DNA of 64,000 nucleotides from Ostreococcus lucimarinus. Its lineage: Eukaryota. Below, in pieces: positions 9,442 through 64,000 of the stretch. Under the pieces are notes generated by a model. It saw only the letters and a list, made by a program, of their open reading frames with translations, searched no databases and was not told the origin of the DNA. The stretch is taken from the NCBI GenBank assembly GCA_000092065.1, contig CP000600.1; one strand, 5' to 3'. Positions within the stretch are counted from its first letter, which is position 1. Each line of letters begins with the position of its first letter. The position numbers and the translations under genes were made by a program.

Positions 9442-10308
9442 CTACGGCCCCGGACGCTCGGGCCTCGGGCCGAGTTCGCCGCGAGGATCGGTGACAGTGA
9501 TGTCGCCCTCTCGCGGCTCGTTGTGTAATTTGTTTTGAACCGCGTCAGCTTCGACGCGCTCTTCAAGGGCGGTCAAGAGACGATCGACGACGACGTCGAC
9601 GGGGGCGCCGTCGGCGTCGTCGCGCGCGCCGAGCGGGACGGTGATGTCTGCCTGCTTGTACATCGTTTCGCGCGTTTCTAACAGAGCGTTGATCTTGGCG
9701 ACGATGGAATCGATCGTCGGTTGTTCCTCGCCGCTGGTGTCGCCGGAGAGTAAGGGACGCTTTTCGACGCCGTCGGCGAGGACGCGGCGCGCCAAGAGCT
9801 CGGAGTCGCCGTGCAAGCGCACGGTGACGCCGTTGTGCAGGTGCATCCAATTCGTCTTCTCGCACACGATACCACCGCCCGTAGATATGACGCATCGCTT
9901 GTACGCCGCGACTTCGGCGAGGATCATGCTCTCGATGGCGCGAAATTCGCTCTCGCCCGCCTCGGCGAAGAGCTCGCTCGGCGTCTTCTTTGTCACGCTC
10001 TTGATGAGCTCATCCGTGTCCAAGTGATTGTACCCGAGCGCTTTCGCCAGCGACGCCCCGACGGTGGACTTTCCGGACCCCATGATACCGATTAAGAACA
10101 GCGACGTGTCTGCGAGCTTGTTCGCGACGGTACGACCGCGCAGAAGCTGCGCGGACTCGGACGCCGAAGCCGAGGCCGAGGACGCCCGGCGACTGTCTCG
10201 AGCGCGTCGCGTCGCGATGACGCGGTGCTTGAGCGTTTGCGTCGGTGCGGAACATTGCGTCGACGGCGAAGCGACGGCACGACGAGCCGCGAGCGCGGCA
10301 GACGACAT
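9442..10308 (-). CDS. Shikimate kinase, probably plastid-targeted
   Basis: Walker A motif 'LIGIMGSGKSTVGASLAKALGY', plus 'LDTDELIKS' and 'VISTGGGIV', match shikimate kinase. There is an S/A/R-rich N-terminal presequence. I moved the start to the ATG of 'MSSAALAARR' (10308) from the non-ATG ORF-track start at 10452. Confidence 0.8.
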   Translation of the reverse strand: MSSAALAARRAVASPSTQCSAPTQTLKHRVIATRRARDSRRASSASASASESAQLLRGRTVANKLADTSLFLIGIMGSGKSTVGASLAKALGYNHLDTDELIKSVTKKTPSELFAEAGESEFRAIESMILAEVAAYKRCVISTGGGIVCEKTNWMHLHNGVTVRLHGDSELLARRVLADGVEKRPLLSGDTSGEEQPTIDSIVAKINALLETRETMYKQADITVPLGARDDADGAPVDVVVDRLLTALEERVEADAVQNKLHNEPREGDITVTDPRGELGPRPERPGP

Positions 10309-15519: not shown

Positions 15520-18036
15520 CTACGGCATGAGCGATGGTGCGGCCTCGACGGCGCGCTTCTTGGACTCGATCACGAGACGCTTTTCGGCGAAGAACATGCG
15601 CTCGAGCTCGGGGGCGATGTCTTCCATCGTGGGACGCTCGAGGGCGTCGGCGCGCCAACATCGAGCGATGACGGCGATGTATTCTTCGGGAAGACGCACG
15701 GCGAACTTTGAGGCGTCATCGAGCGACGGACGCTCGCCGCGAAGTAGAGCGGCGACGATTTGCATCGGTGATAAACCGCTGAAGGGATCTTCGCGCGTGA
15801 GACACTCCCACATGACGACGGCGAAACTGTACACGTCAACGGCGGTCGTGTACCGAGGCTGGCCTTCGAGGAGTTCGGGAGCCATGAACTGGTACGTGCC
15901 GACGAGCGACATCATGCCGCCGCTCGTCGACGCGCCGGTGTGAAATTTCGACAACCCAAAATCTCCGAGTTTTATGGATCCGCCGTCGTCGATGAACAAG
16001 TTTCCAGACTTGACGTCGCGGTGGATGATGTCCGAAGCGTGCAAATACACCAAGCCTTTCGCGGCCTCGCTCATCCATTTCAGAACCTTAAACGCCGAAA
16101 GGGTCTTGTTCGGGTTGTGCAGGTACGCGTATAGCGATCCTTTGTCGCAGTAGTCCATGATGATGCATAGATTCGGCGGTGCTGTGGATGCGCCGATGAA
16201 TTGCACGATGTGACGATGTCGCAAACGCGTGAGGAAAGAAAGCTCGCGCTTGAACTCAGCCAAACCGCGCTCGTCGCTCACGTCGCTCAGCACGCACAAT
16301 CGCTTGATGGCAACGTCTGTTCCTCTATACTTACCGCGGAATACTTCGCCAAACGCGCCGCGACCGATTTGTCGACCAAACTCTAAATGGTCGAGTGGAA
16401 TCTCTTCAAAGTCGTTTTGTCGCGACGACGGTGTGGTCATCGGGCTTCGCGGCGGCTTTTGCGGCGCCAAAGGCGATGGCGTCGACTGCGGCGAACGTTT
16501 GCTTTCGCTCTCGTCTAAAGCATCGGTGAGCGTGCGCACGGCGAACGGATCGACGTACGTCGAAGCAGACGCTGGCCCGCTTTGAAGCGGCGTGAACTCG
16601 AGCGGCGCCGCAAACGCGTCCAAATCAAAATCGCTGGGTTTTCGACGATGACCGGGGCGCGCGCCCAAATCGAGCGGCGGCGCCAAGCCGAACGGATTAT
16701 AATGCTCGTTGTCATCATTGTCGTCGAACTTGATCAGAGGCGGAATCTCCCCCACGGCGATTATCTGCGGCGCCTGCGCCGCCAGATCGGCGTCCATCAA
16801 GTTTTCAAACGTCGGATCCAACACGTGTTTCTTAGCCGGCGCGTTGGCGCTTAAAATCTCCTTAATATCCGTCTCCTTCTCTAAGAACTTTGGTTCCGTT
16901 TCACCGAGCGTATGCACGATTTCCTGCCTCAGGAACGCCTTGCGTAACGCCACGCGAAAGCATTCTCGCAACGCGACGTGCTCGGCGCGAAACTTTTCGT
17001 TGTCACCTTCGGACAACCTATTCTCTTCCGCCAACGTCGCCGCAACGAAGAGCGCAGCGGCGTACGCTAAATCCGCCTCGCGCAACGCCAACCGCGCGAC
17101 GAAACCGATGAGATCGGTCCATTGGAACTTGTCGAATTCGTTCGTCGTCGCCGCGACGGCTTCGGGCAAGTGTCGCGCGGCGAGCTCGACGACTCGTCTC
17201 GCTTTTCCCGCCACCGCGATGAGCGCGCACAAACTGACCGAGGAAATTGGATCGTGCATCCCGATATCATCGTCCTCAAGCGTCTCCACGCGTGCGTCCA
17301 CGGAGTAATTGTTCTCAAACGCCACGAAGAAGCGATGAAACTTACTCTTCGCTCGAATCATCGCCGCGTACGGCGCCACCAGCCCCGCGCACGCGTCGAA
17401 CCCTTCGCGCTCGTAAAACCCCAAACCCTTCGTAAACTCCGCACTCGCCTTGCGTCTCGCCCCTCCGAGCGCCCCGAAATCGCTCGAATACGCCTCCAAA
17501 GGCTCATCCATCAATTTTTCTCGCCACGCGTACGTCGGATGCAAAATCGACGAGCTCCCGTGTTGCTGCAACGCGTGCACCACTCCACACATCCGCAGCG
17601 CCGACACCGAGCTTCGCAACACATCCACTCTCGCCAACGATTTCAGCATCATCTCTATGTTCTCACTCCGTCGCGTCGCGTCTTCGCACCACGTCGCTCG
17701 CACCAATCGTTCGACGTGCCGTCGCTTCGGCGCTCGTCCCTCGCTCGAGTGCATCGTCGCCTTCACGCACGAGTACTCGATCGGCGTCAGGCTCCGCATG
17801 TACGACTGGAACTTTTCATTGAACGTGCCGACGTCGTCCGCGAACGACGGCGTCGGCGTCAGCGCGCCGCTGAAACTCGACGCGCTTTCGTGATGATGAT
17901 GTTGGTGACTCAAACTCGTCGTCGCGCCGTCGCTCGACCGCGTCGGCGCGCGCGCGACGTCGCCGCGATCGCCGACGGCGTCGCTCGCGCCGTCGGTGCC
18001 CTCGCGCGCGTCGAAGACGCGCTCGGCGCGCGACAT
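15520..18036 (-). CDS. Raf-like (TKL) Ser/Thr protein kinase with an EDR1/CTR1-like N-terminal domain
   Basis: The C-terminal kinase domain contains 'IGRGAFGEVFRGKYRGTDVAIKRL', 'IIHRDVKSGNLFID' and 'KLGDFGLSK…'. The N-terminal roughly 400 aa ('…DLIGFVARLALREADLAYAAALFVAATLAEEN…') resemble the N-terminal domain of plant CTR1/EDR1 MAPKKKs. The start is set at the ATG of 'MSRAERVF' (18036). The ORF-track extension to 18339 is the antisense of the MMS19 N-terminus. Confidence 0.65.
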   Translation of the reverse strand: MSRAERVFDAREGTDGASDAVGDRGDVARAPTRSSDGATTSLSHQHHHHESASSFSGALTPTPSFADDVGTFNEKFQSYMRSLTPIEYSCVKATMHSSEGRAPKRRHVERLVRATWCEDATRRSENIEMMLKSLARVDVLRSSVSALRMCGVVHALQQHGSSSILHPTYAWREKLMDEPLEAYSSDFGALGGARRKASAEFTKGLGFYEREGFDACAGLVAPYAAMIRAKSKFHRFFVAFENNYSVDARVETLEDDDIGMHDPISSVSLCALIAVAGKARRVVELAARHLPEAVAATTNEFDKFQWTDLIGFVARLALREADLAYAAALFVAATLAEENRLSEGDNEKFRAEHVALRECFRVALRKAFLRQEIVHTLGETEPKFLEKETDIKEILSANAPAKKHVLDPTFENLMDADLAAQAPQIIAVGEIPPLIKFDDNDDNEHYNPFGLAPPLDLGARPGHRRKPSDFDLDAFAAPLEFTPLQSGPASASTYVDPFAVRTLTDALDESESKRSPQSTPSPLAPQKPPRSPMTTPSSRQNDFEEIPLDHLEFGRQIGRGAFGEVFRGKYRGTDVAIKRLCVLSDVSDERGLAEFKRELSFLTRLRHRHIVQFIGASTAPPNLCIIMDYCDKGSLYAYLHNPNKTLSAFKVLKWMSEAAKGLVYLHASDIIHRDVKSGNLFIDDGGSIKLGDFGLSKFHTGASTSGGMMSLVGTYQFMAPELLEGQPRYTTAVDVYSFAVVMWECLTREDPFSGLSPMQIVAALLRGERPSLDDASKFAVRLPEEYIAVIARCWRADALERPTMEDIAPELERMFFAEKRLVIESKKRAVEAAPSLMP

Positions 18037-51580: not shown

Positions 51581-52885
51581 TCACAAGAGGCGAGCGATTT
51601 CGTCAGTCTCGAACTCGGGCGCTCGTCGAAGGCGACGTATGACGATGCCGACGATGGTGACAGCGACCACACAAAAAAGTGAAGCGCGCGACACGTCTAG
51701 GTCACGAGTGCTGACTACGATTGAAGCTTTCGAGCCCAGACGTGCGCTGACACTCGATGTCGGCGACGCTTCGCCGTTGAGCTCTCTTTGGAGCTCGGCG
51801 AGTTGTTGCTGCAAGCCGGGCATCGAAGGGTGGTCGGGCTTGCGTCTGCCGATCTTTCTGGTGAGCCGGCGAATATCCCGCTTAAGTTTAGCGGCCTGAT
51901 CCGGCGTCAAAGCCGGCGGCGAGGACACGGGCTCGGACGCCGGACTCGGACTCGATGTCGGCGACGCTTCGCCGTTGAGCTCTCTTTGGAGCTCGGCGAG
52001 TTGTTGCTGCAAGCCGGGCATCGAAGGGTGGTCCGGCTTGCGTCTGCCGATCTTTCTGGTGAGCCGGCGAATATCCCGCTTAAGTTTAGCGGCCTGATCC
52101 GGCGTCAAAGCCGGCGGCGAGGACACGGGCTCGGGCGCCGGACTCGGACTCTCCACCGGAGTCGACGACGGATGTGCGTCTGGAGTCGCCGTTGGCGGCG
52201 GGTTCGGTGGCGGATTCGGCGGCGGATTCGGCGGCGGACTCGGCGGCGGCGGGTTCGGCGGCGGATTCGGCGGCGGACTCGGCGGCGGCGGACTCGGCGT
52301 CCCCCCGTTCACCGTGGACGTCACCGACGACGTCACCGTGGACGACACCGACCCCTCACCCAACGCCGCGCCGACGCCCTTCGTCCACGCCCTCGCGCCC
52401 AGCGCCCGCGTCGCCTCTCCCCATCGCTCGATCGCGCCTCCTTCACCCGTTCCGCACGTCCCGATCGCGAGCGCCAAGCACGCGCACGCCCCCGCCGCGC
52501 GCCACCGTCTCGCGCGCGTCGTCCCTCGCCTCCGCGCGTCGTCCCTCGCGTCGTCGCTCGCGCTTCCGCGCGACGTCCGCGTCGCCCCGTACGTCCCTCG
52601 CGTCGTCGTCGCGTCGTCCTCGCTCGCGCGCGCGCGTCCCGTCGCGCGCGTCATCCCTCGCGCGTCCCGCGCGTCCCGCGCGTCCCGCGAACGCGTCGTC
52701 CCGAAGTCGTCCCGAACGCGCGCGCGGTCGGCGTCGAGCGGCGGCGCGACGGCGGTCGGGGTCGGCGTCGCGCGCGCCCGGCGCGACGCGCGCGCGGCGC
52801 CGTGACGGGGTCTAAGCGTTAGACGCAACTCCAATTCGTAGCCCGCGCGCGTGTATTTCGTAACACCATACACCGATCGGCACAT
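51581..52885 (-). CDS. Proline-rich type-I membrane protein with a 66-aa internal tandem duplication (hypothetical)
   Basis: There is a signal/anchor-like 'AAGACACLALAIGTCG', then P/S/N-rich 'PPPSPPPNPPPNPPPPSPPPNPPP', then 2×'EPVSSPPALTPDQAAKLKRDIRRLTRKIGRRKPDHPSMPGLQQQLAELQRELNGEASPTSS', then a TM helix 'LFCVVAVTIVGIVI' and a short tail. The start is uncertain: ATG at 52885 or an internal ATG near 52657. Confidence 0.45.
   Translation of the reverse strand: MCRSVYGVTKYTRAGYELELRLTLRPRHGAARASRRARATPTPTAVAPPLDADRARVRDDFGTTRSRDARDARDARGMTRATGRARASEDDATTTRGTYGATRTSRGSASDDARDDARRRGTTRARRWRAAGACACLALAIGTCGTGEGGAIERWGEATRALGARAWTKGVGAALGEGSVSSTVTSSVTSTVNGGTPSPPPPSPPPNPPPNPPPPSPPPNPPPNPPPNPPPTATPDAHPSSTPVESPSPAPEPVSSPPALTPDQAAKLKRDIRRLTRKIGRRKPDHPSMPGLQQQLAELQRELNGEASPTSSPSPASEPVSSPPALTPDQAAKLKRDIRRLTRKIGRRKPDHPSMPGLQQQLAELQRELNGEASPTSSVSARLGSKASIVVSTRDLDVSRASLFCVVAVTIVGIVIRRLRRAPEFETDEIARLL
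51755..52152. repeat. Tandem duplication, 2 × about 198 bp, 2 mismatches
   Basis: Read directly: 'cgatgtcggcgacgcttcgccgttgagctctctttggagctcggcgag…ggactcggact' is repeated head-to-tail inside the Pro-rich gene. Confidence 0.9.
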
Positions 52886-54262: not shown

Positions 54263-56251
54263 CTAACGTCTCGGTCGAACTCGCCGCCCATCGTTCGCTT
54301 CATCGTCGACAGCTCCATCGTCGAGCGCGCGGCGGTCGACGGCGGCGCGATCCTCACCGCCGCCGCCGCCGGGTGTGCTGAGAAGTTCTTGCGTGGGGGG
54401 TATCGTCAAATCGGCTTGCGAGATCATCGCCGCCATCGCATCTTGCTCAGCGATGCCGCCGTCGTGTGGCATCGCGTCCAAAACCGCGGCAGATGTGGGC
54501 GGCGCGAGGCGCTGCACGCGAGAGGCGAGAAAATTGCTGAACGCGCTCATCGCCGGCAGCGTCGCAAGGTTCGCCGCCATGTCTGTCCCCGCATTCGCCA
54601 GATTCGGCAGTGTGAGAACGCCCTGTGTACCATCTACGTTTCGAGCCGCCGCCGCCGCCACCGCTGCCGCGGTCGCCCCGGGGGGGGCGTGCATGGAGAC
54701 TCCGGCGCCGTCTTGCGCGGGCACGGGCGCGCTCGGGAACACTTCAGCCTTCGGACGCAGAGCGCGCATTTCTGCGACAGAGCTTAATATTTCGCCAGCC
54801 AAGTGCGGACATGAAATGTTCATAGCTTCGTAGCCCTCCGTCGACATGACGTCGCTCAGGTTGGCGGCGATGAAGCTCATGCACGCGCGCTTGAGCGCGT
54901 CGGCGTGGTTCAACTCGGCGAGCATGAGAGTGTTCGCTACGGTGTCAACGTCCACGGATTCGCACAAACGTGCCTCGCACATCGCGCGAAGTCTGCTCAA
55001 GTCAAATCTATCCGCGGCGACGAGCAAGTGTTGCGTCATTGGAACGTCCAAGTTGACTTCGTCCGAAGCCCGACCCGTCGCTCGCGGACCCACCAACGCG
55101 CCAGTCGCGTCGATTTCGCCGTCGGCATCCCCCCTGTGCGCGCCACCCAGCAGGGCGTGCGCGCCGTCATCACTGACGCCCGAGCCTTCGCGCGGGATTT
55201 CGTCTGCGTACACGAAGTGCAACAACAAACGAAACACGCTCGGCTTTATGTCGAGAAGCGTGCACACGCCCTCGCGTCCTTCGCGCATGGCGGCTCCTGT
55301 GCGGAGCATGGCGGCGAACACGCTCGAGCGTGACGACAAGATGAGTTTATGCGCTCTAAACTTTTCGCCCTCGACGTCGAAGGTGCAGTCGAAATCAGAG
55401 TCCGGGTCGTGCAGTAATCGAACGAGGTGTTTTCCGATCGTCGGATACGAGGGCACGTTGACGCTCGCCGCCGGCAGCAACTTCATGTTCTTGTTCAGCG
55501 CCCCACCGCTGGTGACGACAAGCTCTATCTCGTATCGTATCACGACGACATCGTTCAGCAGATACCCCGTCCCCGATCCCTCCAAAACCGACCTGCGGAC
55601 GAATTTACGATAGCCGTGACAGTTGCGCGCTTGCGGGTCTTGCCTCGCGCACGAAATTTTGACCGCCCCTTGCTCGCGCTGTCGCCCTTTCGTGATGTGT
55701 CGCCCGTTCCCACTTTGATCTACCAGGGTAAATCTGTGAAACGCCCGCACGACGCGTCCTTGTCCGCTTTGCACCACCCCCAACGGCCTCGGCCCTTCGC
55801 CGATGAGGGCGACGAAGAGCGCCGCGTACGGATCGTCTTGCGGCGCGCTCGGCGCGTTCCCATCGCTCATCGAGCGCTTACCGTCTGGATAAAACAACAG
55901 CACCCATTCGTGTCCGCCCACCATGAACCGATCGCTCGCGATCGGTTCACCGTCGCCCAATCCCTTCAACAAGCTGTACCCGCTTATCGTGTGTTCGTGG
56001 CGCCCGATGACCGTCGTCGTCGACGTTCGCGACGCCGCGGACACGCCCGCCGGCGTCGTCGTCGCCGGACACGCCGCACTCGCCCCGATCGCCGTCGTCG
56101 CCGTCGTCGCCATCGCGCGCGCGTTCCATCGTTCGTGTCGCTCCGGCGTCGAATCCGCCGGTCGTCGCGCCGCGTGCGTCGCGTCGCGCGCGTCGCCCGG
56201 CGCGCGCGCGCGCGCGCGGGGCGTCGTCGACGGCGTCGCGCGCGGATCCAT
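54263..56251 (-). CDS. MATH-BTB (SPOP/BPM-like) Cullin-3 substrate adaptor with long C-terminal extension
   Basis: A MATH domain ('HTISGYSLLKGLGDGEPIASDRFMVGGHEWVLLFYPDG') is followed by BTB ('DCTFDVEGEKFRAHKLILSSRSSVFAAMLR…CTLLDIKPSVFRLLLHFVYADEIP') and then a roughly 400-aa Ala-rich tail. The start is set to the ATG at 56251; the ORF-track N-terminal 190 aa is antisense of ArgD. Confidence 0.7.
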   Translation of the reverse strand: MDPRATPSTTPRARARAPGDARDATHAARRPADSTPERHERWNARAMATTATTAIGASAACPATTTPAGVSAASRTSTTTVIGRHEHTISGYSLLKGLGDGEPIASDRFMVGGHEWVLLFYPDGKRSMSDGNAPSAPQDDPYAALFVALIGEGPRPLGVVQSGQGRVVRAFHRFTLVDQSGNGRHITKGRQREQGAVKISCARQDPQARNCHGYRKFVRRSVLEGSGTGYLLNDVVVIRYEIELVVTSGGALNKNMKLLPAASVNVPSYPTIGKHLVRLLHDPDSDFDCTFDVEGEKFRAHKLILSSRSSVFAAMLRTGAAMREGREGVCTLLDIKPSVFRLLLHFVYADEIPREGSGVSDDGAHALLGGAHRGDADGEIDATGALVGPRATGRASDEVNLDVPMTQHLLVAADRFDLSRLRAMCEARLCESVDVDTVANTLMLAELNHADALKRACMSFIAANLSDVMSTEGYEAMNISCPHLAGEILSSVAEMRALRPKAEVFPSAPVPAQDGAGVSMHAPPGATAAAVAAAAARNVDGTQGVLTLPNLANAGTDMAANLATLPAMSAFSNFLASRVQRLAPPTSAAVLDAMPHDGGIAEQDAMAAMISQADLTIPPTQELLSTPGGGGGEDRAAVDRRALDDGAVDDEANDGRRVRPRR

Positions 56252-56342
56252 CGCGTCGGATCGCGATCGGGTCGGGTCGGGTCGCGCGTCTCGAAGTCGC
56301 GCTCGCTCGGCGCGCGTCTCGATTCGCGTCTCGCGCGGGATG

Positions 56343-57827
56343 GATGCGACGCGCGTCGCCGCACTCGTCGTCGACGGAGCCCGACACCGCGTCGCGTCGC
56401 GTTGCGTCGCGTCGCGTCGCGCGCGCGGGATGCGCGGGGCGTCCGCGACGCCGTTTCGCGCGACGCGCGCGCGCGTCGACGCGCGCCCGCGACGCGTCGG
56501 AGGAGGAGGACGACGAACGACGACGACGACGACGACGACGACGCGAGCGTTCCTGCGCGGTGTGTTCGGCGGTGGGAAACGAGGAAAGCGCGACGTCGTC
56601 GACGCGGATGAGGTGCGAAAGAACGAACGCGAGTGCGTGCTGCAAACGTACGGCCGAGGCGAGACTGAGGTGATGGTTCGGGGAAAGGGTTGCGCGCTGT
56701 TCGACGCGAGCGGGAAGGAGTTTTTAGATTTCACGAGCGGGATCGCGGTGAATTGCCTCGGACACGCGGATGAAGGCGTGGCGCGAGTGATCGCCGAACA
56801 AGCGCGCACGCTGACGCACACGTCGAACTTGTATCACACCGAACCGGGGGCGACGCTCGCGAGAAAGCTCACGGCGACGTCGTTCGCCGACAGAGTCTTC
56901 TTTTGCAACTCGGGAACGGAGGCGAACGAGGGGGCGTTGAAATTCGCGAGAAAGTACGCCAAAACGCGCGCGCAGGCGCTGGGGAAAAACGCCGGCGACG
57001 CGGCGTGGGAGACGGTGAGTTTTGAAAACGGTTTTCACGGCCGAACGTTCGGCGCGCTTTCGCTGACGTGGAAGGAGGGCTACCGCGCGCCGTTCGCCCC
57101 GGGACTTCCGGGGAACACGTTCACGCCGTACGGTGACTTGGAAAAAGCGCGTCAAGTGATCGTCAAAGGTCGCACGTGCGCCGTGTTCGTCGAGCCGGTG
57201 CAAGGCGAAGGTGGCATTTACCCCGCCGACGCCGAGTTCTTGCGAGGCTTGCGAGCGATTTGCGACGAAGCCGACGCCTTGCTCGTGTACGACGAGGTGC
57301 AGTGCGGCTTGGGACGAACGGGTAAACTCTGGGGCCATCAACTTATTAAAGACGCCGAGCCGGATATGATGTCGGTGGCGAAACCGCTGGCGAACGGCTT
57401 GCCCATCGGCGCCGTGCTGATGAAAGAAAAAGTCGCCGCCGTCATGGCCGCGGGCGACCACGGATCGACGTTCGCGGGCGGGCCTTTGGTGTGCGCCGTG
57501 GCGAACGAGGTCTTCGACCGGGTGAGTGATCCCGCCTTCTTAGCCAACGTCACCGAACGCGGGAACGAGTTGAAGTCGTCGCTCACCGAAAAGCTCGCCG
57601 GTCACCCGCGTCTTCGCGAGGTTCGCGGCGCGGGCTTGCTCGTCGGCGTGCAATTCGACTGCCCCACCGCCCCGCTCGTCGCGGCGTGTCGCGCGCGCGG
57701 TCTGTTGACCATCACCGCTGGTAAGGGTGACATCTTGCGTCTCGTCCCTCCGCTCATCGTCTCGAGCGCGCAGGTGCAAAAGGCCACCGACATCGTCAAG
57801 GAGTGCGCGTTCGAAGCCTTGCGGTGA
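56343..57827 (+). CDS. ARGD: Acetylornithine aminotransferase (class-III PLP aminotransferase), with transit-peptide-like N-terminus
   Basis: 'VLQTYGRGETEVMVRGKGCALFDASGKEFLDFTSGIAVNCLGH', 'FFCNSGTEANEGALKFARKY', 'LVYDEVQCGLGRTGKLW' and 'KPLANGLPIGAV' match the ArgD/OAT family. The ATG is at 56343. Confidence 0.85.
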   Translation, partial: DATRVAALVVDGARHRVASRCVASRRARGMRGASATPFRATRARVDARPRRVGGGGRRTTTTTTTTTRAFLRGVFGGGKRGKRDVVDADEVRKNERECVLQTYGRGETEVMVRGKGCALFDASGKEFLDFTSGIAVNCLGHADEGVARVIAEQARTLTHTSNLYHTEPGATLARKLTATSFADRVFFCNSGTEANEGALKFARKYAKTRAQALGKNAGDAAWETVSFENGFHGRTFGALSLTWKEGYRAPFAPGLPGNTFTPYGDLEKARQVIVKGRTCAVFVEPVQGEGGIYPADAEFLRGLRAICDEADALLVYDEVQCGLGRTGKLWGHQLIKDAEPDMMSVAKPLANGLPIGAVLMKEKVAAVMAAGDHGSTFAGGPLVCAVANEVFDRVSDPAFLANVTERGNELKSSLTEKLAGHPRLREVRGAGLLVGVQFDCPTAPLVAACRARGLLTITAGKGDILRLVPPLIVSSAQVQKATDIVKECAFEALR

Positions 57828-58253: not shown

Positions 58254-59485
58254 ATGAGACCTAGCGCGCGCGGCGACGGCGGACTGACGACGCGCGCGCG
58301 AGCGACGACGGCGCGCGAACGCTCTCAGGGAGCGAAGGCGCAATTACCCAAAGAGTTATCATGGATCCCCGATCTCGTGCACGGCGCGTTCTTCGCGCCG
58401 TGCGACGTGCACAGCACGGGGAGCAAAGGCGAGCAAGTCAATTTGTTCTCGTTATCGTCACGACGCTCGATGTGTCCGGCGTGCGCGGCGGAGCGCGACG
58501 TGTTCGACACGATACAGGTGCGACGCGCGACGCGAGCGATTTTTATTTCAAGCGTCGGGCCCGCGGCGCGGACGACGGCGCCGAGGCGCGGCGCGCGCGC
58601 GGACGACGCGACTCGGGGCTTTGAATCGAGCGAAATGCGGGAAAAGCTCGCGGCCTCAGCTGTCTTTCGCGCGGCGCTTTTAGGGTTTAGGGTTTGGGCG
58701 CGTTCGCGCGGAGGCGACGTACGACTGACGCGCGCGACGAATCGTCTCGCTCGAAACGCTAGATTCGAAGGAGTTCGTATCATAACGTCGTGCGCGTGCA
58801 AGACGTGTGTAAGCTCATGGACGTGACGGGTATACAGACGTACATCATCAACTCGGCGCGCGTCGTGTTTTTAAACGAACGCCCGCACCCGCGGTCGACG
58901 AATAAAAAAGACGGGGAAAAGCTGATGAATCATTCGTCGTCGAGCGGGCGCGGCGCGGGGAGTGGCGAACGATATCGCGCGGGCGCGGGCGCGCAGGCGC
59001 AAATGCACTCGGAGTGTTCGTATTGCGCGCGCATTCTTCAGAGCGACAACAACAAGTATTGCTCGATTTCGTGCAAGATGAACGGCGGCGAAGATATGAG
59101 CGCCAAGGGCGGGATAGACATGTCGTACGCGGAGGAAACGATCAAGCCGACGCCGCGGAAGAGTACGCAGGCCAAAAATGCCGCCAAGGCTGAGAAGGCG
59201 AATAGCGACCGACGGTCACCGGCTCGAAACAAGTCACCCGCGAGCGACACTAGCACCAAGCGCGCTCGCGGCTATTCGCCCGTCTCGGTGAAGAGCGAAG
59301 ACGAATACTCGCCCTCGAGCGAAGGCGCGACGCCGATGCGAGCGGTGGCGGCGGCGACGACTGGGAAACGTAAATATAGCTCAAAGGATCGAAACGGCGA
59401 CGCGCCGGTGACGCCGACGCTTCTCATCGTCACGCCCGCGGTGCCGCATCGGCGCAAGAGTAAGCCGAAAAAATCGCCTCACTGA
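58254..59485 (+). CDS. PLATZ: PLATZ-family zinc-dependent DNA-binding protein; 2 exons (58254..58517 and 58763..59485)
   Basis: Exon 1 encodes '[18 protein letters not shown]…[16 protein letters not shown]'. Donor GTGCGA at 58518 and acceptor TAG|ATT at 58763 (CTGAC 40 nt upstream) define a 245-nt phase-0 intron. Exon 2 encodes '[44 protein letters not shown]…[21 protein letters not shown]'. Joined, the two exons are colinear with plant PLATZ ('…IQIRRSSYHDVVRVSEIQK…[22 protein letters not shown]…FRFCSLGCK'). Confidence 0.8.
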
Positions 59486-60007: not shown

Positions 60008-60967
60008 GTGAACGACATGGAGGACGCGATCGACGAAGCGCCGGCGGCGCGTAGACGACACGTCGGGAGTTCGTCGTCGACGTACACGGCGTACGATAAC
60101 CCCATGACGTCGTCGGCGAATGTGGATGATGATTTCGAAAGCGTGCCACTCAGGGGCGCGGGACGGTCGCTGGCACAGCGCGCGCAAGCGCACCTGAAGT
60201 CGCTGAAGAAGACGCTGAAGGACGCCTTCAAGGACGCCGGTTCGGCGTCGCGGACGCCGGCGCCGACGTCGACGTACGGGAACGAGACGTACGTGGACGA
60301 CGCCTCGTTTGTCGGATCACCACCCGCGGGTCAGATGCTCTCGCGTCACCACGCGCGCGCGAGATCCGTGGATTTACGACACGTGCTCGGCGACTTGGAC
60401 GACACGCTCGAAGGCGCTCACACGGCGGCGACGCTTTTGCGCGAGCTTCGCGATTCGGGTGGAGACCCAGATGCGGATGCGGCGACGAACGACGCGTTAG
60501 ACTTGGAGTTGAGCGACGTGTGCGAGGCCCATCGCGCGCATCTCACGCAAGTGGCGGAGATGACGGATAGCGCGGTGAGTTTAAGCGAGGAGCAACTCGG
60601 GAAGCTGCTTTTCACGCTCGAGGAACTGAACGCGGCGGTGCTCTCGATTCGTTCGGACGGTCGTCCGAAAACGTCGACTACGATGCCAGATCCAGACTCC
60701 TCATGCGCCGCCGTACCTCCGAGCGGCCCCCCGTCGCTCGGAACGAGTCGAATCGAGTGCGCGACGACGGAAGAGGAAGAGGCGGCGATGATCGCCCAAG
60801 CCATCGCGGCGAGTCTCTCCGTCTCCCAACAGTCGGACGTCGAGAAATCAGCCGAAGACGCGCTTCCGCCGCCACTTCCAGCGCCCGCGGAAACGGCTTC
60901 GACTGCGGCGGCGCCGCCTAGGAAACAAACTACCGAAGAGCTGCTCGCGAATCTCATCGACATCTGA
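60008..60967 (+). CDS. Hypothetical protein with C-terminal ubiquitin-interacting motif (UIM)
   Basis: 'TEEEEAAMIAQAIAASLS' fits the UIM consensus (e-e-e-x-φ-x-x-A-φ-x-φ-S). The start is uncertain: ATG at 60017, or an upstream micro-exon (59767..59823, ending at GTGCGT). Confidence 0.4.
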   Translation: MNDMEDAIDEAPAARRRHVGSSSSTYTAYDNPMTSSANVDDDFESVPLRGAGRSLAQRAQAHLKSLKKTLKDAFKDAGSASRTPAPTSTYGNETYVDDASFVGSPPAGQMLSRHHARARSVDLRHVLGDLDDTLEGAHTAATLLRELRDSGGDPDADAATNDALDLELSDVCEAHRAHLTQVAEMTDSAVSLSEEQLGKLLFTLEELNAAVLSIRSDGRPKTSTTMPDPDSSCAAVPPSGPPSLGTSRIECATTEEEEAAMIAQAIAASLSVSQQSDVEKSAEDALPPPLPAPAETASTAAAPPRKQTTEELLANLIDI

Positions 60968-61214
60968 TTCGCGCTCGAGAAACCGCGTCTTCTTGCACTT
61001 TCGTTTAGCGCGGGAACCCCTATTTCCCGCTTGTTCATCTTCACTCAACGCAATTTAATCCAAAGATTTGACTAATCAGTACTACATTCTTGCACCGCCA
61101 CCTAGATTTCTATTTTTTCGTTCGGTATCGTTTCGCGCACGCATACGTGGGCGAATCGTTTTGCATTCCTACATCTTCCAAATTCAGTTTCACCGCTACG
61201 TTCTATCCGCTACG

Positions 61215-62405
61215 TCAATTCGTTGGTTTCGCGAGCCTCGCTCGCGCGGCGTCGACGGCGACGTCGTACGGGAGATACGCGACGTTATACTCGATCGTGT
61301 GCCCTCCGTCGACGCACGAACCTCGCGCACTCTCGGCGTCGAGCATGAATGGTAGTTCGATGCGTTCGGAGGGTAATCCCGTGACGTCCACAGTCAACGC
61401 TTCACGAACGACGTGGACGCCGACATCGCGAGCGCTTTTGCCTCGCGGCACGCCTACGCGAAGCTTTACGGATGTCACCGGCCGCCCGAGAAATTCGATG
61501 GAGTGATCGATCCCGCTTCGTATCTCCGCACGTGACACGCTCGGCGTGTTCTGAACAACCGTTCGCGTCTCAACCAGGGAAGGACGCGTCTCCGCGAGAA
61601 GTCGCAGCGGCGGAGGCGGGTCGGCGCCGATGAACTTTCGCGCCGGCAATCTATATTCGGTATCGAGCGCTATCCCGTACGTTTCTCGGCATCGTCGCAA
61701 ACTTAGCTCTGCGATGAGTCGCTTCAGCGGCTTGTAGACCTCCGCGTGACGCAGGACGACGTCGTTGAAGGCGACGTCGAACACCGTGCACGGATTCGCG
61801 TTAGAGTCGACGTCCGCGCGCGCCCGTCCTTCGCGCAGAGGGAACACCAAAGCGTCGTCGTCTCCGTCTCGAACGGAGTGCTTTTTGTGCTCGAGCGCGG
61901 CGATGACGCGCTTAGGCATTAGCCCCCGACGCCACTCGTCGTTGCCCGCGGCGGGCGCCGCGACGTCGTGGCTCGCGCACACGTTGACGAACACCTTCAT
62001 CCCACTCGCATCCCTCGTCTTCACCACGAATGCCGGCGTGAGCGCGATAGTGTTTCTCACGGTCGTCCGAGCGTCGATCGTCGCGTCGGCAAACTCTCTC
62101 AGTTTCCCAGCGGCTGCCTGGCGCAACAAGCTCGCCGTCTCGCGCAGCGCGTCCTCGACGTCGCCGCCGTCGTCCTCCGTCGTCAACGCCCGCACCATCT
62201 CCGCAATCAACGCTCGTAACCCAGCAAGCCCGCCCTCGTCGTCGCCTTCGAGCAGCGCCGTGAGCGCGCGCACGTCGAAGGACTCGTCGTCTTCGTCGAC
62301 ACCGACGCCGAAACGTCGTGCGTCGGCGCGATAGTCGTCGACGTACGACGTGAACGCGCGCGCGATGCGTTCGGTGTCACTTCGCGCGTCCCGTTCGCTC
62401 GTCAT
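61215..62405 (-). CDS. PIH1-domain protein (R2TP co-chaperone / dynein-assembly factor family)
   Basis: 'GMKVFVNVCASHDVAAPA…EWRRGLMP' matches the PIH1 N-terminal domain. The C-terminal 'VKLRVGVPRGKSARDVGVHVVREALTVDVTGLPSERIELPF' is CS-like, as in PIH1D1/kintoun. The ORF starts at an ATG. Confidence 0.6.
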   Translation of the reverse strand: MTSERDARSDTERIARAFTSYVDDYRADARRFGVGVDEDDESFDVRALTALLEGDDEGGLAGLRALIAEMVRALTTEDDGGDVEDALRETASLLRQAAAGKLREFADATIDARTTVRNTIALTPAFVVKTRDASGMKVFVNVCASHDVAAPAAGNDEWRRGLMPKRVIAALEHKKHSVRDGDDDALVFPLREGRARADVDSNANPCTVFDVAFNDVVLRHAEVYKPLKRLIAELSLRRCRETYGIALDTEYRLPARKFIGADPPPPLRLLAETRPSLVETRTVVQNTPSVSRAEIRSGIDHSIEFLGRPVTSVKLRVGVPRGKSARDVGVHVVREALTVDVTGLPSERIELPFMLDAESARGSCVDGGHTIEYNVAYLPYDVAVDAARARLAKPTN

Positions 62406-62741
62406 CGCGCGCGCGGCGCCCGAACGCGACCAAGTGACGCGATGCGCGTCGCCGCACTCGTGAAAGACAGTGACGGGATGGATGCGATGCGCGTCGGAAC
62501 GTCAGAACGCGACGCGCCGAGCGCGGCGGCGACGCCGAGACGCGCCGAGCGCCGCCCGCGGCGACGACGACGCTCGCGGTGACGACGACTTCGCGCGTTG
62601 ATCGACGACTCGCGCGCATACGACGCGCTTCGACTCCATCGCGTCGGTCGCCCCGCGGCCGTTGGCGCGTCGTCGCGACGTTCGCTCGCGTTGACGCGGA
62701 CGATGATGACGCGCGCGCGCGGCGAACGGCGCGGCGCGAAG

Positions 62742-63725
62742 ATGATGGCGCTCATCGTCGCGTCGTTGGCGACGCTCGTTCGAGGAGATGAGTACAGCGT
62801 GAACATTGAACGCGCCATCGTCAACTCGAAGGGCTTGCAAGCCGTCGGCGCGCTCGACGCGCTTTCGGCGCGACTTTTGGAAGCGTTGTGCGAGAGCGAC
62901 GAGACTTCGTGCGAAGCATACGAAACGACGAGGAAAAGCTTATGGTTGACTTTCGGGAACGACTACATCTGTCAGGTGGGGAGCGACGCAGACGCGACGT
63001 GGAACGCCATCGACACGACGTCGACGCAGGGCGGTATCGCCGTTTTGTTGTCAAAGTGCTCGCGCGCCTGGTTGGGCGATCTCGAGCAAGCGGTGTTAAA
63101 TCTAGCGCCGCGGTTTTTAGCGCAAGCGTCGTTGCAACGCGCGGACGTCGCCGCCGTGATCGCTGCGAACGACGCGGCGGCGGGACGCGCGGCGACGCAG
63201 GCGGGCGACAACTTAGACGACCTGCATCCGAGCTACATAGCAAACTTGGCTCCGATCGCGACAGAGTTAACGTCGTTCAGTGAATCGCGACCTGTAGTCG
63301 TGACCGCGACGGCGACGGCGGACGAGAGTACGTACTACTCGGGTTTCAGCACCGACGTCAAGTCTGCGATAGCCGCATCGCGAGCACGCGGCGCGAAGAG
63401 CGTCGCCGGTTCCACGGAGGCGTTTCCGGATGCCTACGTGAAACGCGTTGAAACGGCGCAGGTTTCGCTGGACTTATATCGTGGAAGGTATCTCGAGCAT
63501 CCATACGCGAAGGCGCACTACGACAAAGCGATCAAGTGCGCCGGGCAGTCGACGAACGACGCGCTGTGCTACAACCGCGTTGTACCCGAGATCGGTTACA
63601 CGCACAGCGCGGACGGAACGAGACTGCTCTCGTCGTACGGTGAACCACTCGCGACAAACTTTGTTGATTATAACCAGCCCGCAACGTACGTCGCGGGCGT
63701 GCGGCTATCCTCGCAAACGCGTTGA
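62742..63725 (+). CDS. Hypothetical secreted protein (signal peptide 'MMALIVASLATLVRG'), subtelomeric
   Basis: The ATG at 62742 begins a hydrophobic signal peptide followed by roughly 310 aa of non-repetitive Cys-containing sequence. It has no recognisable family. It is the last gene before the telomere. Confidence 0.45.
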   Translation: MMALIVASLATLVRGDEYSVNIERAIVNSKGLQAVGALDALSARLLEALCESDETSCEAYETTRKSLWLTFGNDYICQVGSDADATWNAIDTTSTQGGIAVLLSKCSRAWLGDLEQAVLNLAPRFLAQASLQRADVAAVIAANDAAAGRAATQAGDNLDDLHPSYIANLAPIATELTSFSESRPVVVTATATADESTYYSGFSTDVKSAIAASRARGAKSVAGSTEAFPDAYVKRVETAQVSLDLYRGRYLEHPYAKAHYDKAIKCAGQSTNDALCYNRVVPEIGYTHSADGTRLLSSYGEPLATNFVDYNQPATYVAGVRLSSQTR

Positions 63726-63790
63726 GACGCGCGTCGCGCGTTTGTGTGAAACACAAAGGGATCGAAAATAAACGAATTGATTCCAAAAAA

Positions 63791-63795
63791 TGTAA
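63791..63795 (+). promoter_or_regulatory. Putative TGTAA polyadenylation signal for the last gene
   Basis: 'aaaaaatgtaagat' lies 66 nt after the stop at 63725. TGTAA is the green-algal poly(A) signal. The same pentamer sits 12 to 45 nt after the stops of PRP6 (7874), NAA30 (8515), the hydrolase (24910), Yip1 (32154) and the K+ channel (48316). Confidence 0.35.
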
Positions 63796-63873
63796 GATAT
63801 CGAATGAATAGCTATCCCCGCGTCGTCGCCGTCGCCGTCGTCGTCGTCCCTTTGTGTCTCCGCGCCGTCGTCG

Positions 63874-64000
63874 GTTTAGGGTTTAGGGTTTAGGGTTTAG
63901 GGTTTAGGGTTTAGGGTTTAGGGTTTAGGGTTTAGGGTTTAGGGTTTAGGGTTTAGGGTTTAGGGTTTAGGGTTTAGGGTTTAGGGTTTAGGGTTTAGGG
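63874..64000 (+). repeat. Telomere: (TTTAGGG)n, about 18 units, G-rich strand 5'->3' toward window end
   Basis: Read directly: 'ggtttagggtttagggtttaggg…' continues to the last base. This is the Arabidopsis-type telomere repeat. Confidence 0.95.

Follow-up and report, generated by a model that had tools for sequence, protein, structure and literature searches.

The window analysed here is a 64,000-nucleotide (nt) stretch of Ostreococcus lucimarinus DNA (GenBank assembly GCA_000092065.1, contig CP000600.1) that ends in a telomere, and its last part (62598-64000) is the true right-hand end of the O. lucimarinus CCE9901 chromosome homologous to O. tauri chromosome 14. The homology is assigned because the last ~15 kb of that O. 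tauri chromosome holds the same gene set. Very probably, this end is genuine and compact, it carries a trimmed copy of a subtelomeric element that other chromosome ends have too, its telomere has been re-capped, and a conserved gene has come to lie last through repeated small inversions. The new part is modest: a 2.6-kb terminal inversion that segregates in the wild and has an element scar inside the chromosome, together with several independent healing points.

The telomere was identified in two ways. Tandem Repeats Finder (TRF) returned a perfect 7-nt repeat at 63873-64000 (18.3 copies, 100% matches), and a pattern search for two consecutive telomere repeats gave 18 matches where 0 were expected in shuffled sequence. 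The tract is a (TTTAGGG)18 array with its first unambiguous TTTAGGG at 63875, and it reaches the end of the window at 64000; the GG at 63873-63874 is assignable either to the telomere repeat or to the flanking element. TTTAGGG is the telomere repeat found naturally in O. lucimarinus (PMC2794166), and its G-rich strand runs 5' to 3' outward, the orientation for a right-hand end. The feature (TTTAGGG)n at 63875..64000 on the plus strand is also supported by metagenome contig L010, which reproduces the gene-to-telomere junction of the window over 61237..63888 at 100% identity. The same repeat terminates contigs L150, L149, L151, L061, L121, L037 and L141 after related elements. On the proximal side, the stop codon of the last gene ends at 63725, leaving a gap of 149 nt before the first full telomere repeat, and over the last 10 kb of the window TRF reported short GC-rich low-complexity tracts alone, with neither a satellite nor a long tandem array. 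These results agree with an earlier reading made from the sequence alone (the sequence-only reading), which had described a (TTTAGGG)n tract starting at 63874 (63873 or 63875 here), 149 bp past a stop codon and with no satellite nearby. That reading had also taken the junction for a true chromosome terminus, as is borne out by the identical junction in the independent contig L010 and by the same gene order in L150 and L155.

Between the gene and the telomere lies a piece of a shared element. The metagenome contigs were scanned with a degenerate motif derived from the last 35 nt before the telomere; many matches were unrelated GC-rich bacterial contigs, and in many contigs the motif stood a few hundred nt from the contig end or from (TTTAGGG)n, with differing proximal flanks. 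Alignment defined a Type A element that reaches from CGTCGTCGTCCCC... as far as the telomere, over about 400 nt (L061 and L121; also L036, L066 and L096), and a Type B element of about 385 nt (L149 and L037; also L055, L104, L126, L075, L049 and L141), which are 76-79% identical over a 75-nt core stretch. At least six distinct proximal flanks were found among the metagenome contigs for Type A and at least six for Type B. A BLAST comparison of the elements with the whole window gave two significant pieces only, 63743-63873 and 61145-61191. The first of them (63743-63873) matches positions 240-370 of L096 at 93.9% identity (E 6e-54). L096 has no other match in the window; it is a different chromosome end, its last gene encodes a 972-aa HAT/TPR protein, and its element runs another 240 nt beyond the match. 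Because another end matches there, 63744-63874 is taken as a 131-nt fragment of the shared element adjoining the telomere, and unique DNA ends 18 nt past the stop codon. These 18 nt (63726..63743, plus strand) are the sole unique DNA distal to the stop codon, and 63743/63744 is both the element boundary and the right-hand breakpoint of the inversion described below. The claim of the sequence-only reading that the end has no subtelomeric buffer therefore does not hold.

The distal part of the fragment (63839..63874, plus strand) corresponds to the first 36 nt of the ~400-nt Type A core, with 97% identity to the L061 core, and a 35-nt core before the telomere is common to the window, L036, L061, L066 and L121. 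In the alignment of L036, L061, L066, L096 and L121, the Type A core runs ~400 nt to the telomere; in the window it is cut off distally and telomere-capped at ...GTCGTCGG/TTTAGGG. The proximal part (63744..63838, plus strand) is a variant common with L096 and of looser kinship to the Type-II-like element of L011 and to L025. AATAAA and TGTAA motifs lie within this part, and any 3' untranslated region of the terminal gene longer than 18 nt would lie inside the element. The stretch ATAAACGAATT, common to the 3' flank in the window and to Ostreococcus clade C3, was considered as a conserved 3' untranslated region and discarded, since L096 assigns it to the shared element. L096, L055 and L104 were likewise considered as alleles of this end, and BLAST identified them as different chromosome ends.

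Chaux-Jukic et al. 2021 (Nucleic Acids Research, PMC8287924), in the part of the paper that bears on O. lucimarinus, report no subtelomeric repeats in this species, a Type-I element (<=411 nt) at 21 ends and a Type-II element (<=844 nt) at 15 ends. By that account a compact end is ordinary for the O. lucimarinus genome, and the repeat-free end that had been presented as notable is a published genome-wide property. The elements described here resemble those of that part of the paper in three respects: a short non-tandem element stands directly beside (TTTAGGG)n and is common to many ends, full copies measure about 400 nt (Types A and B) or more (the Type-II-like element of L011), and some copies lose their telomere side, with junctions in different phases. 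They differ in that the end of the window keeps 131 nt only, and in the presence of a 47-nt inverted internal piece that this part of the paper does not mention. The small genome of the alga Cyanidioschyzon merolae (PMC1955436) similarly has genes near the telomere, shared non-satellite end elements and no ribosomal DNA at its ends; its elements reach 20 kb and carry genes, whereas the Ostreococcus element is below 1 kb and non-coding save for a CBS-like fragment in the long form. This fragment was seen in L011 (17200-17640), where a Type-II-like long element holds an apparent CBS-domain gene fragment on the minus strand, flanked by 60-nt direct repeats of the element start.

Comparison with closely related contigs indicates how the fragment came to be so short. 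L150, which has the same order of genes and 99.7% identity, agrees with the window to ...GCGCCGTCGTCGG, continues with 175 nt of element and then has its own telomere; the match extends up to ...GTCGTCGG, and the GG is present in L150 before the divergence. L155 (99.7%) continues into a standard Type A core past the reference telomere point. Because L150 runs 175 nt past this point and L155 runs into the core, the reference end appears to be a truncation that has lost at least 175 nt of element and its former telomere. An independent healing point was found in L151, in the inverted arrangement, where the telomere begins 18 nt into Type B. The joins read GG/TTTAGGG in the window, with no filler, and GCG/TTTAGGG in L151; re-capping at GG would be a typical signature of de novo telomere addition. 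We propose that the element at this end was trimmed on both sides, which would leave the present 131 nt, that a terminal deletion removed its distal part with the old telomere, and that telomerase may then have re-capped the end at GG, that is, chromosome healing by de novo telomere addition, a step deduced from sequence comparison only. In closely related wild alleles the element extends further, by 175 to about 400 nt.

Terminal deletions healed by de novo telomere addition are a classical finding in yeast, Plasmodium, ciliates and human chromosomes with terminal deletions. The present end resembles these cases in that the telomere starts abruptly inside sequence that intact alleles continue, with a 2-nt G-rich match to the repeat. 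It differs from them in that a few hundred nt of non-coding element were lost, no gene was removed, and the enzyme mechanism is a presumed one. In Mamiellophyceae, mutations are enriched within 1 kb of telomeres (PMC5455958), and in O. mediterraneus terminal deletions with re-capped ends are documented in complete telomere-to-telomere assemblies (PMC13390643). As a side observation, in clade C4 contig L023 has (CCCTAAA)15 at 2-106, 354 bp from the BTB stop codon, and L022 (1-200) continues for at least 150 nt past that point; this pair appears to represent another healed truncation at the homologous chromosome end.

The second mode of remodelling is an inversion. Contigs encoding the identical terminal protein or the identical 'UIM' protein were classed by the arrangement of their genes. 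The 'UIM' gene (60017..60967, plus strand; 316 aa, with the identical protein on at least 24 contigs) is the last gene of the non-inverting proximal region. It is followed by the PIH1-domain gene (61215..62405, minus strand) and, divergent from it, by the terminal gene (62703..63725, plus strand). In the reference form, found in the window, L010, L150 and L155, the order is UIM(+), then PIH1(-) and gene(+), then element and telomere. In the inverted form, found in 20 contigs from many samples (L007-L009, L011-L020, L149, L151-L154, L156 and L157), it is UIM(+), then gene(-) and PIH1(+), then element and telomere. The invertible terminal block thus comprises PIH1 and the terminal gene and measures about 2.6 kb. 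All 20 inverted contigs have one and the same junction, in which 63743 is followed by 'atct' and then by the reverse complement of 61124. On their distal side, the 3' flank of PIH1 runs through 61145 into a Type B element and the telomere (L149, L151, L156 and L157). The reference junction between UIM and PIH1 is carried by L150 and L155.

The second piece of element in the window lies at the left-hand end of the block. It is an inverted 47-nt relic of the proximal end of Type B (61145..61191, minus strand; 95.7% identity to L149, E 2e-16), which lies 24 nt downstream of the PIH1 stop codon, and 61144/61145 is the left-hand inversion breakpoint. The relic is 46/47 identical to the unrelated end L055 and is also present in L104. 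Next to it, 20 nt of filler (61125..61144) are found in the reference arrangement only; the inverted arrangement has 4 nt (AGAT) instead. From this 47-nt inverted scar beside PIH1 it follows that PIH1 formerly adjoined a subtelomeric element. Across 62500-63743, the contigs L007-L020 and L149-L157 have 17 variable sites among 24 contigs, and identical single-nucleotide polymorphism (SNP) haplotypes over 1.24 kb occur in both orientations: L007, L008, L009 and L153 are identical to the window, and L152 to L155. Haplotypes common to both forms could result from recurrent inversion, from gene conversion or from a mosaic metagenome consensus. A single reciprocal two-break inversion was considered in either direction and excluded, since it does not reproduce the observed junctions. 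We infer two events or more, and each would have combined a double break and end joining with later re-capping from another end. The most recent inversion would be that of the 2.6-kb block of PIH1 and the terminal gene, apparently still polymorphic in nature, and it may have left the 47-nt inverted scar of subtelomeric element beside PIH1.

Several points weigh against this account or narrow its reach. The sharing of the element was judged on metagenome contigs, which possibly come from several Ostreococcus species, and the other 41 reference ends stand outside the comparison. Type A is probably the published Type-I, an equation which, like that of Type B with the published classes, rests on length and position (about 400 nt against '<=411 nt'). 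L010 may derive from the reference strain itself, and the exact healed junction may be strain-specific; metagenome contigs, moreover, can be mosaics. Recombination-based capture of a telomere may have produced the join in place of telomerase. In the sister lineage L025 and in clade C3 the terminal gene faces the end, contrary to the PIH1-terminal earlier state that the relic implies. Finally, the two forms are not exact reciprocals, with 20 nt against 4 nt of filler and a Type A against a Type B distal element. As the evidence of the relic conflicts with that of L025 and C3 and the forms are non-reciprocal, the inversion may have gone in either direction.

The block may also have flipped more than once and might still flip, with breaks inside the element and re-capping by copying or joining the element of another end. 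We give this only a slim chance; it is kept open because of the haplotypes found in both orientations, the 47-nt scar, and the orientation in L025 and C3, which is opposite to the commonest wild form. A slighter chance falls to the idea that PIH1 and the terminal gene form a reversible flipping cassette whose orientation tunes expression through a telomere position effect. The occurrence of both orientations in nature, with identical SNP haplotypes, would fit such a cassette. So would the short distance, 18-24 nt, between either block end and the beginning of a subtelomeric element, and the relic, which shows that the block was once at the end in the other orientation and which forms with the distal element a pair of diverged inverted repeats. 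However, all inverted contigs share the junction 63743-atct-61124 and all reference-form contigs share another, and the forms are non-reciprocal, as neither homologous nor site-specific flipping would give. The pattern rather speaks for single events with later gene conversion, or for metagenome contigs whose consensus is mosaic. A search for simple inverted repeats flanking the block returned only GC-rich low-complexity pairs, and the relic and the distal element are too diverged for detection there.

The inversion of the terminal block belongs to a wider pattern in the genus. Eight genes were compared across lineages (PPR, nucleotide-diphospho-sugar transferase, BTB/MATH, ArgD, PLATZ, UIM, PIH1 and the secreted-protein gene, which is the terminal gene of the window), and their order differs in each lineage examined. 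The O. tauri orthologue of the terminal gene is XP_003083139.1 on chromosome 14 (CAID01000014.2, 547,765 bp); there the PPR gene is terminal and the orthologue lies 8.4 kb from the end. The clade C3 end reads PIH1(-) gene(+), beyond which come a 120-bp tandem repeat and then a helicase gene. The clade C4 end reads telomere, 354 bp, then BTB(-) gene(+) PIH1(+), and in clade C5 the order is ...gene(+) Nuc_trans(+) BTB(-) PIH1(+). The chromosome end is conserved as a region, with the order of the genes inside it scrambled by small inversions, and it is incidental which of them stands last. Repeated reshuffling of this kind would have affected the last ~15 kb of the chromosome. Palenik and colleagues are said to have described, in 2007, how gene order differs between Ostreococcus species through small local inversions, with chromosome-level synteny kept. 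The present case is alike in that the eight genes stand in at least five orders or orientations (O. lucimarinus, O. tauri and three uncultured clades). It differs in being a polymorphism within a population diverged by <1%, at the very end of a chromosome and involving a subtelomeric element.

Clade C3 shows a further feature past the orthologue, a ~120-bp tandem repeat with a 261-aa open reading frame (ORF) and a 1208-aa Helicase_C gene (L001 10290-15522; L003 11190-11518; L004 10530-10609), and L004 diverges from L001 and L003 about 150 bp past the stop codon of the orthologue. By analogy, this clade may have a larger, helicase-bearing subtelomere reminiscent of yeast Y' elements or of fungal telomere-linked helicases.

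The terminal gene itself encodes a protein of 340 aa that is an exact match to XP_001422629.1/ABP00946.1, annotated 'predicted protein' on a 549,133-bp record of strain CCE9901; its ORF extends over 62598..63725 (plus strand), with the first ATG at 62703. Homologues fall into 12 clusters at 90% identity, matching at least 90% of the length at 50-99% identity. A profile search of 1.8 billion representatives gave 40 hits at E<1e-3 in total, with a few extra homologues at about 30% identity. The named members are all from Ostreococcus, and the family comprises Ostreococcus and a few marine relatives. Because some members come from Marine Microbial Eukaryote Transcriptome Sequencing Project (MMETSP) transcriptomes, the family is expressed. 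Conservation and expression, by which the sequence-only reading had proposed to judge the terminal ORF, are thus both found. In all orthologues, an equivalent hydrophobic segment precedes a conserved [DE][DE]xS..ERAI. In the terminal protein itself, residues 1-27 are signal-peptide-like by simple rules, with the sequence MMTRARGERRGAK-MMALIVASLATLV-RG followed by DEY and a predicted cleavage after VRG. The strongest hydrophobic window covers residues 14-26, and the protein has no other transmembrane-like segment. It has 6 Cys, 4 of them invariant across the family. Searches of Pfam, of PDB sequences and for a fold gave no match, and the only confident part of its AlphaFold model is a helical bundle of residues ~45-150. 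The description of a secreted-type protein of no known family is in line with this N-terminus and with the absence of Pfam, PDB or fold matches. We would most readily take it for a secretory-pathway protein with disulphide bonds, secreted or at the cell surface; targeting to the thylakoid lumen is possible, given RR motifs and the S/R-rich extensions in P0009-P0011. In these clade C5 orthologues, a Ser/Arg-rich N-terminal extension of ~80 residues stands ahead of the hydrophobic segment; it resembles a bipartite plastid/lumen targeting sequence, or start codons may have been mis-called.

The sequence-only reading had also taken the gene for a lineage-specific, fast-evolving secreted gene of the kind found at chromosome ends, and this part of it fails. 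The terminal gene has one orthologue per clade, with the same 7-8 syntenic neighbours in every Ostreococcus clade examined, and neither the window nor the other chromosome ends obtained from metagenomes contain a paralogue. Its GC content at third codon positions (0.745) is the same as that of its neighbours, and its ratio of nonsynonymous to synonymous substitutions (dN/dS), 0.51 against the sister lineage L025 at 8.5% nt divergence, likewise speaks for a real, conserved gene. To its counterparts in O. tauri and three uncultured clades it is 52-57% identical, and in the same comparison UIM has 57%, PLATZ 51-66%, PIH1 36-47%, ArgD 73-85% and BTB/MATH 70-78%. Since these values are comparable, the terminal gene is not unusually fast-evolving; its divergence is like that of UIM and PLATZ and less than that of PIH1. 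Nor is it terminal in O. tauri, in clades C4 and C5 or in most wild O. lucimarinus-like contigs, where it lies away from the end. It is an ordinary single-copy conserved Ostreococcus gene that would have come to be last by chance of reshuffling. We find it very unlikely that the gene is instead a product of subtelomeric dynamics, a lineage-specific and rapidly evolving effector or surface protein in the manner of var, VSG or adhesin genes. The signal-peptide-like N-terminus, the conserved cysteines, the lack of a known family and the restriction of the family to Ostreococcus and a few marine relatives would suit such a protein. The same is true of the dN/dS of 0.51, which is not very low, and of the raised mutation rate that this class is reported to have within 1 kb of telomeres (PMC5455958). 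Against it stand the single orthologue per clade and the mere 40 hits in the profile search, the absence of paralogues on the recovered ends, the constant neighbours and a divergence no greater than theirs, together with the distance of 8.4 kb from the O. tauri end and the internal position in the inverted form, C4 and C5.

Least probable of all, to the point of being barely credible, is that a collapsed or chimeric assembly joined the telomere to the gene and that the true end lies further out: 20/23 environmental contigs do not have the gene adjoining the telomere, and in L150 and L155 the element runs past the reference telomere point, but the independent assembly L010 contains 61237..63888 with the junction, L150 and L155 have all genes in the reference order and the left junction 61124-61145 as well, telomeres are healed at other positions both at this end (L151) and in another clade (L023 against L022), and the reference is a finished assembly. 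Varying healed telomere positions are also reported for the reference genome as a whole in the relevant part of PMC8287924.

The other genes near the end were examined with Pfam. PIH1 (PF08190; E 7e-19, 68.3 bits against a gathering cut-off of 24), PLATZ (58790..59485, plus strand; E 4.5e-22, 78.9 bits against a cut-off of 25) and the class-III aminotransferase ArgD (55923..57827, plus strand; Aminotran_3, E 2e-110, 369.7 bits against a cut-off of 30.5) were recovered as the sequence-only reading had named them. The remaining gene that it named, 'UIM', gave no Pfam hit at E<=0.1, and that name comes only from visual recognition of the motif EEEEAAMIAQAIAASLS. A bidirectional promoter region (62406..62702) separates PIH1 from the terminal gene and contains the motif CGGGATGGATGCGATGCGCGTCG at 62474-62496, which is also found at 56336-56358.

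Some further observations concern the same neighbourhood. A 23-nt motif, CGGGATGGATGCGAYGCGCGTCG, is common (22/23) to both bidirectional promoters, that between BTB and ArgD (56336-56358) and that between PIH1 and the terminal gene (62474-62496). In the 102-kb contig L011 the segment ArgD-PLATZ-UIM-gene is inverted as well, and this second inversion breaks within the motif on either side (9769-9791 and 15813-15835); it was seen in this single contig. An interstitial (TTTAGGG)2.4 followed by TTTGGG lies at 58679-58698 between two PLATZ coding pieces and is probably intronic. It is kept in the O. lucimarinus-like contigs L009, L153 and L155, O. tauri and clades C3-C5 lack it in their PLATZ regions, and it could be a telo-box-type regulatory site or the scar of an old end. 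Further inside, a 198-bp unit is present as a tandem duplicate at 51752-52151 (99% identical) and complex GC-rich repeats follow at 52194-52800; L011-L013 differ in copy structure over 51752-52800, suggesting that a repeat of variable copy number lies about 12 kb inside the end.

Combined, these results describe the chromosome ends of a very abundant marine alga as they are remodelled in the wild, at base-pair resolution. In mamiellophytes, genes stand densely up to the telomere, and a single short shared element of a few hundred nt takes the place of satellite arrays. Two modes of remodelling are seen at this locus: small terminal deletions healed at different points, and the inversion of a 2.6-kb terminal block, with an element scar left behind. 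The end of the reference strain is the minority arrangement, with 3 reference-form against 20 inverted metagenome contigs. If the block does flip repeatedly, wild Ostreococcus populations would vary recurrently, and possibly under selection, in which gene lies less than ~100 bp from the telomere. The locus offers a system, testable by polymerase chain reaction, for end repair (healing against break-induced copying) and for possible telomere position effects in a compact genome of the green lineage.

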